A DNA stretch of 63,778 nucleotides, filler included, from Reclinomonas americana ATCC 50394 (taxonomy: Eukaryota), in NCBI GenBank assembly GCA_048213135.1. It is 4 parts of 4 records of this genome, joined end to end, with 100 filler letters (N's around TTAATTAATTAA, not from the genome) between each part and the next. Parts side by side here need not be neighbours in the genome. Positions count along the whole stretch, not along the records: positions 1 to 28,482 come from PS015142.1; positions 28,583 to 43,395 come from PS015143.1; positions 43,496 to 62,108 come from PS015144.1; positions 62,209 to 63,778 come from PS015148.1. One strand, given 5' to 3'. Positions 17 to 63,364 of the stretch are shown one piece after another. Made by a program: the position numbers and the translations under genes. Position 1 is the stretch's first letter. Every line of letters begins with the position of its first letter. The notes beneath the pieces are model-generated. The model saw only the letters and a list, made by a program, of their open reading frames with translations. It did not search any database and was not told where the DNA came from.

Positions 17-485
17 CAGACGCGTACGACGACACAAACTTCTCAAAGTTCTCCGCCGTCAGCTCGTCCTTGAAGTTGTAGTGCAGGTTGTTGATGTAGT
101 CATCGATGGCCACCGCCGGGGTGGTGCCGCTCAGACCGAGGCGCGTCTGGTGCGATCCAAAGTGCTCGCTGTGCGTGTGTGGCAAAAGTGAGGTGAGCAC
201 GGTGGACAAGGAAGCAATGGTGGTTGGCGTCACACTCAACTTGTCGAGGTAGATGAAAGTGAGGTTGCTCTTGTACTTGGAGGCGGTCGACTTCAGCGGC
301 TCGATCAGGCTCTGCACCGCCTTCTTGTCGCTCTTGTCGACAAAGACCAGGGCGAACGGCTTATTGCGCGACAGGAACTCGCCGGCGTTGTCAAAGGTGA
401 GCTCACCAAACACCGGGCTCGCCGTGTCGGTGAAGAACGACTCGAGCGACGAGCTCTTGTCGTATGCCACACGCGGCTCGTCGAA
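17..485 (-). CDS. PDI: Protein disulfide isomerase, b/b' domain exons (partial; contig apparently inverted relative to the rest of the gene)
   Basis: Translation FFTDTASPVFGELTFDNAGEF...PAVAIDDYINNLHYNFKDELTAENFEKFVSSYASG resembles the PDI b' domain. Has an internal intron (donor GTTGAGT at 240) and ends at a GTGCGT donor (nt 16) that joins in frame to the + strand exon at 1535. Confidence 0.75.
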
Positions 486-1534
486 NNNNNNNNNNNNNNN
501 NNNNNNNNNNNNNNNNNNNNNNNNNNNNNNNNNNNNNNNNNNNNNNNNNNNNNNNNNNNNNNNNNNNNNNNNNNNNNNNNNNNNNNNNNNNNNNNNNNNN
601 NNNNNNNNNNNNNNNNNNNNNNNNNNNNNNNNNNNNNNNNNNNNNNNNNNNNNNNNNNNNNNNNNNNNNNNNNNNNNNNNNNNNNNNNNNNNNNNNNNNN
701 NNNNNNNNNNNNNNNNNNNNNNNNNNNNNNNNNNNNNNNNNNNNNNNNNNNNNNNNNNNNNNNNNNNNNNNNNNNNNNNNNNNNNNNNNNNNNNNNNNNN
801 NNNNNNNNNNNNNNNNNNNNNNNNNNNNNNNNNNNNNNNNNNNNNNNNNNNNNNNNNNNNNNNNNNNNNNNNNNNNNNNNNNNNNNNNNNNNNNNNNNNN
901 NNNNNNNNNNNNNNNNNNNNNNNNNNNNNNNNNNNNNNNNNNNNNNNNNNNNNNNNNNNNNNNNNNNNNNNNNNNNNNNNNNNNNNNNNNNNNNNNNNNN
1001 NNNNNNNNNNNNNNNNNNNNNNNNNNNNNNNNNNNNNNNNNNNNNNNNNNNNNNNNNNNNNNNNNNNNNNNNNNNNNNNNNNNNNNNNNNNNNNNNNNNN
1101 NNNNNNNNNNNNNNNNNNNNNNNNNNNNNNNNNNNNNNNNNNNNNNNNNNNNNNNNNNNNNNNNNNNNNNNNNNNNNNNNNNNNNNNNNNNNNNNNNNNN
1201 NNNNNNNNNNNNNNNNNNNNNNNNNNNNNNNNNNNNNNNNNNNNNNNNNNNNNNNNNNNNNNNNNNNNNNNNNNNNNNNNNNNNNNNNNNNNNNNNNNNN
1301 NNNNNNNNNNNNNNNNNNNNNNNNNNNNNNNNNNNNNNNNNNNNNNNNNNNNNNNNNNNNNNNNNNNNNNNNNNNNNNNNNNNNNNNNNNNNNNNNNNNN
1401 NNNNNNNNNNNNNNNNNNNNNNNNNNNNNNNNNNNNNNNNNNNNNNNNNNNNNNNNNNNNNNNNNNNNNNNNNNNNNNNNNGTGTTTTTTGCATTTTTTT
1501 GGTTTTGTTGTCGCTCATTCTCCTCCTCATTCAG

Positions 1535-2835
1535 GCACCCTCAAGCCACACCTGCGCAGCGAGCCCATCCCGGCAAAGCAGGAGGGCCCGGTGACGGTGG
1601 TGGTCGGCGACTCGTTCGAGTCGGTGGTTCTCGATGCGAGCAAGGACGTGCTGGTGGAGTTTTACGCTCCGTGGTGCGGCCACTGCAAGAAGCTGACGCC
1701 CGTGTACGAGGCGCTGGCCGAGCACTTTGCCGAGGACAAGGGCCTGGTGATTGCCAAGTTCGACGCCACTGTCAACGACCCGCCGTCGACCGTTTCGATC
1801 GAGGGCTTCCCCACGATTCTCTTCTTCCCGGCCAACGACAAGGCCAACCCGATTACGTTTGAGGGCCCGCGCAAGCTCGAGGGCTTCATCTCGTTCATCG
1901 AGGAGCGCGCCACGGTCCCGGTGAAGAAGACGCCGAAGAAGGAGGAGGCGGCTGAGGCGGAGACGGAGGAGCCGAAGAAGGAGGAGTCGAAGGAGGAGGC
2001 GGCGGCGGCTGAGCCGAAGAAGGAGGCTGAGGCTGCTGAGCCGAAGAAGGAGGAGGCGGCGGCGGCGGCGGCTGAGGCCGAGGTGAAGAAGGCTGACGCT
2101 GAGGAGGAGGTGCAAGTCAAGGTGCAGAAGAAGGACAAGAAGAAGAAGGGCAAGAAGGACAAGGCCGAGGAGGAGGCCGCTCGCATCAAGGCGGAAGAGG
2201 AGGCCGATGCTGCTCGCCAGGCCGCGCTGCAGGCCGAGGCCGCGGCACGCAAGAAGGCGCAGGAGGAGGAGGAGGCTGCGCGGCGCAAGGCCGAAGAGGA
2301 GGAGGCCATCCGCTTGAAGGCTGAGGCGGCCGAGGCTGCCCGTCAGGCGGCGCAGGCGGCAGAGGAGGAGCGTGTGAAGGCTGTTGCGGAGGAGGAGGAG
2401 GCTCGCCAGAAGGCAGCCGCCGAGGAGAAGAGCAGCAAGAAGGCCAAGAAGGACAAGAAGAAGGGCAAGAAGGCGGCGGCGGCGGAGGAGGATGCCGCGG
2501 CTGCTGCCAAGAAGGCTGAGGAGGAGGCGGCCAAGAAGAAGGCCGAGGAGGAAGCCGAGGCGGAGGCGGCTGCAGCTGCAGCGAAGAAGGCCAAGGAGGA
2601 GGAGGAGGAGGCCAAGAAGAAGGCTGAGGAAGAGGAGGCAGCAGCGGCGGCGGCGGCCAAGAAGGCCGAGGAAGAGGCCAAGGCGGCAGCAGAGGAGGAG
2701 GAGGCCAAGGCGGCGGCAGCGGCGGCGGCAGAAGCCGAAGCGGCGGCAGCAGCGGCAGCCAAGAAGGACAAGGCCACCAAGCCGAAGAAGGACAAGAAGC
2801 GCATCGGCAAGAAGGCGCCCAAGGACGAACTGTAG
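1535..2835 (+). CDS. PDI: Protein disulfide isomerase, terminal exon: x-linker + a' thioredoxin domain + long K/E/A-rich tail, C-terminal KDEL
   Basis: LKPHLRSEPIP x-linker, DVLVEFYAPWCGHCKKL active site, EGFPTI cis-Pro motif, ends KDEL-stop. Polypyrimidine tract and CAG acceptor upstream. Confidence 0.93.
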
Positions 2836-3201
2836 ACGAGCAACATGGCCGCTCGATATCTCGTGAGGACAACTCTCAATACACGAAATCGGACATTGCT
2901 TTGCATCGTGTCGTTTCCACCGGCCCCGCACTCCCCACCACCCCCATGTGTCTGATCCGTGCCAAGTCGGTTGCAGAAGGGTCTCACGGGGCCGCACGCA
3001 CGAGTTGTCCGCAAACAAGGCCTTGTCGGTTGCAGAGAATTCTCGAACAAAGAGCCCGCCAAGAAATCAGACAAAATCGAGCGTCGTGGAGCCAACCTCC
3101 AACTCTCTTAGAACCTCGCACGCACGCAGAGACCACCCGCTCTCCCTCCCCTCCCTCCCCCTTACATACAAACGAACAACCACCACCACCACCACAACAT
3201 C

Positions 3202-3369
3202 ATGGCCGACACCGCCCTCGCCATGCTCCTCGACAGCCCCGCCGCCGCGGCTCTCTCACTCATCTTGTGTGGTGTGAGTGTCGCCGTGGGCGTCGCTCTG
3301 CTGGTGCTCCTCGTGCGCCACCTGCACGCACCTTCCAAGACGACCGCCGACGAACACGCATCACGAGTG
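3202..3369 (+). CDS. Hypothetical membrane protein, N-terminal fragment (runs into a gap)
   Basis: ATG followed by a hydrophobic stretch (LSLILCGVSVAVGVALLVLLV) with typical codon usage. Remainder hidden by Ns. Confidence 0.4.
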
Positions 3370-62108: not shown

Positions 62109-62152
62109 NNNNNNNNNNNNNNNNNNNNNNNNNNNNNNNNNNNNNNNNNNNN

Positions 62153-62164
62153 TTAATTAATTAA
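62153..62164. other. Artificial scaffold linker
   Basis: TTAATTAATTAA in N padding. Confidence 0.9.
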
Positions 62165-62815
62165 NNNNNNNNNNNNNNNNNNNNNNNNNNNNNNNNNNNN
62201 NNNNNNNNAGATCCCAACATCTCTCTCTTCGCGCATCACTTTCCTTCTCTCTTGAGCATGTGCAGGTCCCAACATCACTCCACGCGTCAGCTTGCTTTCT
62301 CCTCGCGCATCGCTCTTTTCTTCTCTTCAGCATGCGTGGGTGACAACACCATTCAACACGTCGGCTTTCTTTCTCCCCTTCCTTCCCCCGTCTCGCNNNN
62401 NNNNNNNNNNNNNNNNNNNNNNNNNNNNNNNNNNNNNNNNNNNNNNNNNNNNNNNNNNNNNNNNNNNNNNNNNNNNNNNNNNNNNNNNNNNNNNNNNNNN
62501 NNNNNNNNNNNNNNNNNNNNNNNNNNNNNNNNNNNNNNNNNNNNNNNNNNNNNNNNNNNNNNNNNNNNNNNNNNNNNNNNNNNNNNNNNNNNNNNNNNNN
62601 NNNNNNNNNNNNNNNNNNNNNNNNNNNNNNNNNNNNNNNNNNNNNNNNNNNNNNNNNNNNNNNNNNNNNNNNNNNNNNNNNNNNNNNNNNNNNNNNNNNN
62701 NNNNNNNNNNNNNNNNNNNNNNNNNNNNNNNNNNNNNNNNNNNNNNNNNNNNNNNNNNNNNNNNNNNNNNNNNNNNNNNNNNNNNNNNNNNNNNNNNNNN
62801 NNNNNNNNNNNNNNN

Positions 62816-63271
62816 TACTTCCTCGACAGCATCGACAAGATCCGCTTCTTCTTCGAAAAGGGCGTGTTTGACGAGAAGACGGGAGCGCTGAATCGACCAG
62901 TGGAGTTGGCGTTGAACAAGGTCGGGCATGCGTTGCACGCGTTGGATCCCACGTTCCGCAGACTGTGCACGTCGGCGCGTGTGTCGGCGCTGGTGCATGA
63001 GGATCTCGGCATGCGTGAGCCGTCTCTGGTGCAGTCCATGTACATCTTCAAGGTAACAACTGGGGGGGGGGGGGGAGGAAGGAGGAGAATGGAAGCGGTC
63101 CTCATATCACTGGTGGTGCGCAGCAACCGCAAGTGGGCGGGGAGGTGTTGCCGCATCAGGACTGCTCGTTCTTGCACACGGTGCCGAGTTCGGTTGTGGG
63201 CTTGTGGATCGCTCTGGAGGATGCCAAGATCGGCAATGGTTGCTTGTACGCGGTGCCTGGGTCGCACAAGA
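62816..63271 (+). CDS. PHYHD1: Phytanoyl-CoA dioxygenase domain-containing protein 1 (internal exons)
   Basis: [45 protein letters not shown] (HxD iron motif), [18 protein letters not shown]. Confidence 0.93.
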
Positions 63272-63364
63272 GTTGCGCGCAGAGGGGGAAGAGGAGGGAG
63301 AGAGAGGGAGAGAGGGAGGGAGGGAGGGAGGGAGGGCGAAGGGAAGGGAGAGAGGGAGGGAGTG

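Follow-up and report, generated by a model that had tools for sequence, protein, structure and literature searches.

The introns of a 63,778-nucleotide (nt) stretch of the Reclinomonas americana ATCC 50394 genome (four records of assembly GCA_048213135.1 joined end to end, hereafter the window) contain an abundant second class of 5' splice sites (donors), whose profile is that of the main class slid one base into the intron and without its preference for G at the last exon position (-1). The main donors carry G at the fifth intron base (+5), as in G/GTGCGT, where the slash marks the cut, and those of the second class carry G at +6, most often as GTTGCGT. The window includes 8,314 N in 21 masked runs, its unmasked sequence has a GC content of about 59%, and the evidence came from this sequence, from homologous proteins, and from the literature.

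Introns were predicted with a donor-agnostic gene finder that required only GT at the donor and AG at the acceptor and whose score combined a 3-periodic Markov model of coding sequence, a content model of introns from whose training the first 8 bases were left out, a length prior with its centre at 70 nt, and a bonus for C at acceptor position -3. Of the 172 introns predicted, 167 belonged to genes scoring at least 20 and were kept, and 5 were dropped; when benchmarked against 22 homology-defined introns, the finder reproduced 18 exactly. The commonest donor hexamer was GTTGCG, which starts 20 of the 167 introns (18 of them with T at +7), and GTGCGT came second with 15. Among the remaining GT, GTTGCG occurs at 25 of 3081 in sense and at 13 of 2530 in antisense orientation (binomial p 1.8e-17), which bears out the enrichment over background that a first-pass annotation of this window had proposed to test. 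Donors with +5G (80 of 167) were designated class A, and those with +6G but without +5G (40 of 167, 31 of them with T at +3) class B. T at +3 was strongly coupled with the displaced G, since +3T donors comprised 31 with +6G and no +5G versus 17 with +5G, and donors lacking +3T comprised 9 versus 63, respectively (odds ratio 12.8, p 3.6e-9). A second, donor-informed pass used donor matrices learned from the first one, so that it is a fair refinement of the gene models but circular for motif frequency; its 153 introns comprised 88 with +5G, 45 with +6G only (38 with +3T) and 20 with neither, and its most frequent hexamers, under the same circularity, were GTTGCG (27) and GTGCGT (20). The shifted-type share of the introns was thus about 19-25% (31 of 167 in the agnostic pass and 38 of 153 in the refined one).

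The first-pass annotation had listed 27 GTTGCG donors and several twins in which a T appeared to be inserted into other common donors. All 27 sites are present on the strand and at the first intron base given there, with T at +7 in 24 of them, as its wording "usually GTTGCGT" had implied, and the listed twins are likewise present, those at 240 and 24970 on the minus strand. Its figure of 27 among roughly 150 introns was reproduced by the donor-informed pass, with the circularity already mentioned. When 31 listed sites were compared with the gene models, 26 were recovered by the donor-informed pass and five (7154, 32760, 35606, 43963 and 63272) retained the motif only. GTTGCGT donors absent from its list were found at 42912 (plus strand) and at 61417 and 61603 (minus strand). 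The GTTGCG sites and then the twin donors are given below with the evidence for each; on the minus strand the first intron base is the higher coordinate.

15704 to 15762, plus strand: MutY intron, aca/GTTGCGC; PDB alignments and donor-agnostic finder.
27635 to 27697, plus strand: RCC1-repeat gene intron, cca/GTTGCGT; Pfam RCC1 23-50/50 before and 1-50/50 after the intron, and donor-agnostic finder.
42912 to 42982, plus strand: ankyrin gene intron, cac/GTTGCGT, not in the first-pass list; donor-agnostic finder.
48712 to 48777, plus strand: ADP-ribosylglycohydrolase gene intron, ctc/GTTGCGT; donor-agnostic finder.
48857 to 48915, plus strand: ADP-ribosylglycohydrolase gene intron, aca/GTTGCGT; donor-agnostic finder, and Pfam 122-138 and 142-177, weak and roughly contiguous.
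56631 to 56709, plus strand: intron, tct/GTTGCGT; donor-agnostic finder.
58546 to 58611, plus strand: intron, ctc/GTTGCGT; donor-agnostic finder.
63272 to 63278, plus strand: GTTGCGC motif, first-pass donor; motif only, no support from the gene models.
5842 to 5911, minus strand: intron, gtc/GTTGCGT; donor-informed pass only, the agnostic pass taking 5914, 3 nt upstream and in the same phase.
7148 to 7154, minus strand: GTTGCGT motif, first-pass donor; motif only, adjoining a masked run, no support from the gene models.
14613 to 14684, minus strand: intron, ctc/GTTGCGC; donor-agnostic finder, with low-complexity Pro-rich exons.
14767 to 14849, minus strand: intron, ccc/GTTGCGT; donor-agnostic finder.
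18490 to 18548, minus strand: HAP2 gene intron, ctt/GTTGCGT; donor-agnostic finder, in the poorly conserved C-terminal part.
18648 to 18720, minus strand: HAP2 gene intron, att/GTTGCGT; 1 of 3 homolog alignments and donor-agnostic finder.
24832 to 24894, minus strand: CNDP2 intron after a 3-nt exon, acg/GTTGCGT; 38 of 40 homolog alignments.
26468 to 26551, minus strand: CNDP2 intron, cct/GTTGCGT (LPP/ILL); 38 of 40 homolog alignments.
30173 to 30249, minus strand: intron, gat/GTTGCGT; donor-agnostic finder.
30335 to 30425, minus strand: intron, cac/GTTGCGT; donor-informed pass only.
32213 to 32280, minus strand: intron, tcc/GTTGCGT; donor-informed pass only, the agnostic pass taking 32292, 12 nt upstream.
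32754 to 32760, minus strand: GTTGCGT motif, first-pass donor; motif only, exonic in both passes.
35600 to 35606, minus strand: GTTGCGT motif, first-pass donor; motif only, within a longer predicted intron and not picked as its donor.
36057 to 36114, minus strand: intron, tca/GTTGCGT; donor-informed pass only.
36717 to 36797, minus strand: intron, ctc/GTTGCGT; donor-agnostic finder.
40868 to 40937, minus strand: aminotransferase gene intron, ctc/GTTGCGT; donor-agnostic finder.
43957 to 43963, minus strand: GTTGCGT motif, first-pass donor; motif only, outside predicted genes.
54607 to 54681, minus strand: WD-repeat-like gene intron, gat/GTTGCGT; donor-agnostic finder.
54900 to 54971, minus strand: intron, ctc/GTTGCGT, not in the first-pass list; donor-informed pass only.
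59943 to 60013, minus strand: PCNA copy 1 intron, ctc/GTTGCGT (VTLS/MSPD); Pfam PCNA_C 64-101, split Ser codon, 103-128, the agnostic finder taking 60034.
60136 to 60203, minus strand: PCNA copy 1 intron, gat/GTTGCGT; Pfam PCNA_C 33-65 then 64-101, and donor-agnostic finder.
61342 to 61417, minus strand: PCNA copy 2 intron, ctc/GTTGCGT, not in the first-pass list; paralog of the 60013 intron, and donor-agnostic finder.
61540 to 61603, minus strand: PCNA copy 2 intron, gat/GTTGCGT, not in the first-pass list; paralog of the 60203 intron.
169 to 240, minus strand: thioredoxin-like gene intron, caa/GTTGAGT; donor-agnostic finder.
12794 to 12866, minus strand: intron, caa/GTTCCGT; donor-agnostic finder.
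14504 to 14564, minus strand: intron, agc/GTTTCGT; donor-agnostic finder.
19595 to 19665, minus strand: HAP2 intron, tac/GTTGTGT; 3 of 3 homolog alignments.
24898 to 24970, minus strand: CNDP2 intron, act/GTTTCGT; 38 of 40 homolog alignments, with a merger into the next intron in 2 of 40.
25329 to 25389, minus strand: CNDP2 intron, caa/GTTCTGT; exact intron in 29 of 40 and donor in 32 of 40 homolog alignments.
25897 to 25954, minus strand: CNDP2 intron, aag/GTTATGC; 40 of 40 homolog alignments.
27151 to 27220, plus strand: intron, gca/GTTCCGT; donor-agnostic finder.
57656 to 57721, plus strand: FkbM-methyltransferase gene intron, ctc/GTTACGC; donor-agnostic finder.
59346 to 59414, plus strand: intron, caa/GTTACGT; donor-informed pass only.

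The position of the cut was checked against homologous proteins with a protein-to-genome aligner that permitted only GT/GC..AG introns and contained no further splice-site model (40 CNDP2 and 3 HAP2 homologs), whereas conserved domains were placed exon by exon through Pfam coordinates and MutY through PDB alignments. Homology fixed at least eight GTTGCG-type junctions, and removal of the introns restored the frame and the conserved residues in CNDP2, PCNA, MutY and the RCC1-repeat gene, which agrees with the first-pass claim that, in the first three, cutting before GTT yields the expected protein. The CNDP2 gene (26920-24510, minus strand) was resolved into 14 introns of 58-85 nt, and a +1 slide of the cut at 24894 would turn a conserved Val into Gly. 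In PCNA, the junction at 60013 is exact, with PCNA_C position 101, a split Ser codon and position 103 running contiguously, and that at 60203 is consistent (profile position 65 followed by 64). The RCC1 junction at 27635 is also exact, passing from position 50 of one repeat to position 1 of the next, and in MutY the exon before 15704 ends with RFPT at residue 80 of 3n5n_X and the next one starts from residue 81. For HAP2, 8 introns were agreed by all three homologs, including that at 19665 (GTTGTGT), and GTTGCGT at 18720 was chosen by one of the three alignments, the other two placing the cut 3 nt further downstream, at a GC donor (18717), where the protein is poorly conserved. The cut before GTT is fixed by homology less firmly in HAP2 than in the other four genes. 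Among the 23 homology-defined introns of CNDP2 and HAP2, 11 have +5G, 10 have +6G without +5G, and 2 have neither. A homolog search with the aminotransferase exon gave no match, a MutY C-terminal query gave three weak matches, one of them a repeat protein, that were of no use for spliced alignment, and a CNDP2 exon searched against metagenomes matched mostly bacterial dipeptidases (55% identity at best) and no close relative.

Two other cuts were considered and rejected. If the true donor were the GT further downstream, at +6/+7, the frame would be wrong at the homology-fixed junctions, and few such hexamers have +5G. A cut one base later (G/TTGCGT...AGN) loses the conserved CAG/ acceptor and also replaces the conserved Val at 24894.

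PCNA is present as a tandem duplicate on the minus strand (about 60688-59843 and 62104-61245), with near-identical exons, partly diverged introns, and N-terminal parts obscured by masked runs in the two copies. GTTGCGT starts both introns in both copies. In the paralogous intron pair the first 9 nt are identical and the next block has diverged, which points to constraint rather than to recency.

It could be argued that the motif is an artefact, a nearby GT being used instead or the heptamer being a by-product of TG/CG-rich introns or of the gene finder. Five of the 31 sites compared above have no support from the gene models, and of the 8 GTTGCGT that lie within predicted introns, 6 are first-pass donors situated a few bases downstream of the GT chosen by the agnostic finder. 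Nevertheless, this explanation is highly improbable, given the junctions fixed by homology and three further controls. Firstly, composition was ruled out, a condition that the first-pass annotation had itself attached to its claim: the GTT that continued with +6G+7T numbered 26 of 54 at donors, compared with 23 of 379 at non-donor sense sites and 12 of 189 within intron interiors. Secondly, the GTTGCGT heptamers are oriented. The window holds 41 of them, including 18 agnostic donors, the 8 in predicted introns, 3 in predicted exons, 2 in antisense and 8 outside predicted genes, so that within predicted genes 29 are sense versus 2 antisense (two-sided binomial about 5e-7). Thirdly, when GT was replaced by decoy dinucleotides, the total gene score decreased from 2218 to 1606-1952, no hexamer occurred more than 9 times, and the top decoy hexamers were mere offsets of the real donor signal, which ruled out a gene-finder artefact.

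Comparison of the two donor classes indicated how they are related. The class A consensus (n = 80) is (G 70%)/GT(G 60%)(C 39%, T 34% or A 21%)G(T 64%), and that of class B (n = 40) is (G 10%)/GT(T 78%)(G 68%)(C 70%)G(T 72%). Class B corresponds to class A slid by one base, i.e. G/GTGCGT becomes N/GTTGCGT and the first intronic G of class A becomes T. When the exon flanks were compared in this slid alignment, class A -2 did not differ from class B -1, nor class A -3 from class B -2 (p 0.16 each), whereas in the conventional alignment the -1 positions of the two classes differed (p 8e-10). G at -1 was found in 3 of the 31 donors with +6G and +3T versus 56 of the 80 with +5G. This loss is tied to the register and not to +3T, because donors combining +5G and +3T keep -1G (14 of 17, versus the 3 of 31; p 7e-7).

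We lean towards the reading that the 5' splice-site signal G/GUGCGU has been slid one base inward to give N/GUUGCGU, with U1 pairing in a +1-shifted register. One heptamer, G-(G/U)-U-G-C-G-U, would be recognised in both classes; in class B the 5' end of U1 would pair in the +1-shifted register, with intron G+1 occupying the place of exon G-1, U+2 mismatched, and U+3, G+4, G+6 and U+7 replacing U+2, G+3, G+5 and U+6. The cut would still fall before the sole available GU, presumably upon handover to U6 and the catalytic core. We infer both the shifted pairing of U1 as the cause and the accommodation of the extra base by U6. The donors display several features of the shifted register, namely absence of +5G, presence of +6G/+7U, recovery of the consensus on a one-base slide, and no selection for -1G. 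Minimum-energy duplexes with the canonical U1 5' end were all-shifted for 14 of the 20 GTTGCG donors.

The first-pass annotation had left the choice between a bulged and a shifted register undecided; the abundance of the displaced-G class was borne out, and the bulged alternative was disfavoured. In a bulged-U register, -1 and +1/+2 would pair canonically, one U (+2 or +3) would be bulged, and G+4 to U+7 would continue the helix. GUUGCGU is formally compatible with this arrangement, which has been experimentally validated in human (PMC4856993, Table 3). However, a bulged helix keeps the pair between -1G and C9, so that -1G should be retained or strengthened, and it is instead lost, whereas in a shifted helix C9 pairs with intron G+1 and -1G is not needed. 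The donor profile does not match the canonical pairing at -1, +1 and +2 that characterises the bulge +2/+3 register, and nearest-neighbour folding picked a bulge in 1 of 20 donors. The bulged-U register is thus an unlikely account of the class. The donors GTGCTG(T/G) and GTGCCGT at 15793 (plus strand) and at 26166, 19516 and 18947 (minus strand), which have +6G and keep -1G, would fit a bulge better, and in this small GTGC[TC]G(T) group a +5 bulge seems more likely than a shift. The class as a whole is broader than T-inserted twins of common donors. The donor at 15793 (gag/GTGCTGT) belongs to an in-frame, stop-free 57-nt MutY intron (15793-15849, plus strand), which would otherwise encode a 19-residue insert relative to solved MUTYH structures.

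Several observations weigh against the shifted-register reading. Pairing of GTTGCG to the canonical U1 is weak in every register, with a mean of -0.76 kcal/mol compared with -5.8 for the +5G class, although the organism's own U1 may differ from the canonical one; shifted pairing to a standard U1 alone therefore fails to explain why this is the commonest donor. C is found at +5 in 70-86% of class B versus 39% at +4 in class A (p 1e-5), in a flank-comparison set that mixes finder output with hand-picked first-pass sites and hence carries an ascertainment bias at +4/+5; this C would face a U1 pseudouridine in the shifted register, which leaves the preference unexplained. No enrichment of A was observed at -1, where A would pair with U10. 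The base at which cleavage occurs rests on the GT-AG rule and the reading frame, and a +1 slide is equally acceptable at 60013 (Ser/Ser) and 26551 (Ile/Val) and gives an identical messenger RNA at 15704. The agnostic finder missed 4 of 22 verified introns, it also missed the in-frame 57-nt MutY intron and the PCNA junction at 60013, and some of the 47 donors (of its 167) that belong to neither class are probably wrong. Finally, the sample is a single window with 55 kb unmasked.

The near-nil pairing and the unpartnered +5C leave room for a lineage-specific reader, e.g. a variant U1 or a changed U6, U1C or LUC7. A dedicated recognition component that matches GUUGCGU directly, be it an additional U1 variant, a sole U1/U6 that has changed, or a changed U1C/LUC7-type protein, is a lesser but real possibility; the class would then have its own reader instead of depending on mis-registered pairing with a standard U1. 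In addition to those two observations, GTTGCGT is the commonest donor, its positions +4 to +7 are tighter than +3 to +6 of the main class, and the motif CTGAY is enriched in class B introns (15 of 40 versus 10 of 80 in class A; p 0.003, exploratory and uncorrected), which hints at a partly distinct recognition. On the other hand, the match of the slid profiles at the exon flanks is what one reader working in two registers predicts, and few eukaryotic RNA sequences are as conserved as the U1 5' end. In its fullest form, to which we give a similarly small weight, two parallel readers of the major spliceosome would coexist, a canonical one for G/GUNNGU and a dedicated one for N/GUUGCGU (a U1 variant whose 5' end is complementary to GUUGCGU, or co-adapted U1/U6/U1C), the latter signal being selected rather than just a tolerated mis-registration and possibly coupled to a CUGAY branch site. 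No small nuclear RNA gene in the window matched Rfam at the gathering threshold, and five sub-threshold matches, resembling microRNAs or small nucleolar RNAs, were obtained at E<=1.

On the explanation favoured here, the GTTGCG introns, about 60-85 nt long, are authentic GT-AG introns of the major (U2) type. Every modelled intron starts with GT and ends with AG, and 16 of the 20 GTTGCG introns have a CAG acceptor. They resemble the main-class introns in median length (70.5 versus 67.5 nt), in phases and in CAG acceptors, and their last 50 nt contained a branch-like CT[CGA]A[CT] in 18 of 20 cases, compared with 50 of 80 for the +5G introns. These branch-like motifs are mostly CTCAY in the +5G introns, the +6G introns being those enriched in CTGAY; the latter enrichment could offset the weakness of the donor or belong to a separate mode of recognition.

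The coexistence of two sharply conserved 5' splice-site consensus sequences recalls the U12-type introns, whose donor consensus is RTATCCTT. GTTGCGT is unrelated to it, so that a U12-type origin was ruled out, and the branch-like motifs and CAG acceptors observed here are, unlike those of U12-type introns, the ones of the main class. GTATCC, which matches the U12-type donor consensus, starts two predicted introns, 12328-12258 (minus strand) and 27854-27919 (plus strand), whose sequences are GTATCCTTGC and GTATCCTATG, and no clear U12 branch box was seen near the 3' end of either intron.

Dominance of a single exact heptamer might also reflect a shared origin, the introns descending from a mobile introner-like element ending in GTTGCGT and owing their abundance to recent copying, and transposon-derived introners do produce many introns with an identical terminal motif. 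However, an all-against-all blastn of the 20 introns returned nothing other than the PCNA paralog pair and a single low-complexity match of 12 nt, i.e. no shared sequence beyond the heptamer except between the paralogs, and an introner or repeat origin was ruled out. In contrast to introners, these introns have no internal similarity, uniform length (59 to 84 nt) or visible terminal repeats. The conservation of the first 9 nt between PCNA copies with diverged intron interiors also speaks against recent copying, which we regard as scarcely credible.

The human precedents place the class among known registers. According to Tan et al. 2016 (PMC4856993), U1 pairs with atypical human donors either shifted by one or with a one-nucleotide bulge, and these rare cases were validated with suppressor U1; the +1-shifted register is credited there, in summary, to Roca & Krainer 2009. 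As that source describes them, the human +1-shifted donors also belong to GT-AG introns without +5G and with G+6 and U+7, the cut stays at GU, and a test oligo has the same architecture as the class described here. The differences are that the register is rare in human, whereas about 19-25% of the introns use it here, with the commonest donor among them; that the core is GCGU rather than AAGU, with weak pairing to canonical U1; and that suppressor-U1 experiments back the human cases. The human bulge +2/+3 donors (Roca et al. 2012; Tan et al. 2016), of which Table 3 of PMC4856993 counts 54-68 among 201,541 sites, all noncanonical registers amounting to 2.1%, share with this class an extra U between GU and the equivalent of +5G, but -1G, of which a bulged canonical helix would make use, is not preferred in the class; the human +5 bulge, as presented in the same source, resembles the minor GTGC[TC]G(T) group. 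Full-text searches of the main articles turned up neither a GUUGCGU class of donors nor, in any lineage including protists, a shifted register in abundant use. The class is thus an abundant variant of a register that is rare in human, and the donor profiles suggest that this known register is used in R. americana as a major class.

According to PMC4856993, human shifted and bulged registers account for about 2% of sites and the +2/+3 type for about 0.03%, while in this window a shifted-type donor is the commonest and its class makes up about one-fifth to one-fourth of the introns. If genome-wide data confirm this abundance, R. americana would offer a natural system to study the handover of a mis-registered 5' splice site from U1 to U6 and the precision of the cut, and it would reveal whether diversification is possible in the near-invariant U1 5' end. 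On the same condition, donor matrices with a fixed register would mis-annotate about one intron in four to five in this genome.

Some further features of the introns and exons were observed. The CNDP2 gene contains two micro-exons on the minus strand, 26300-26296 (5 nt, CCTCC) and 24897-24895 (3 nt, ACG), which were chosen by 35 of 40 and 38 of 40 homolog alignments, respectively; they are flanked by introns of normal size (65 and 71 nt for one, 73 and 63 nt for the other), and conserved residues are restored with them. The commonest 7-mers of the window stem from long (GT)n, (GA)n and (CT)n runs, several of which are intronic, e.g. 58329-58423 and 26551-26468.

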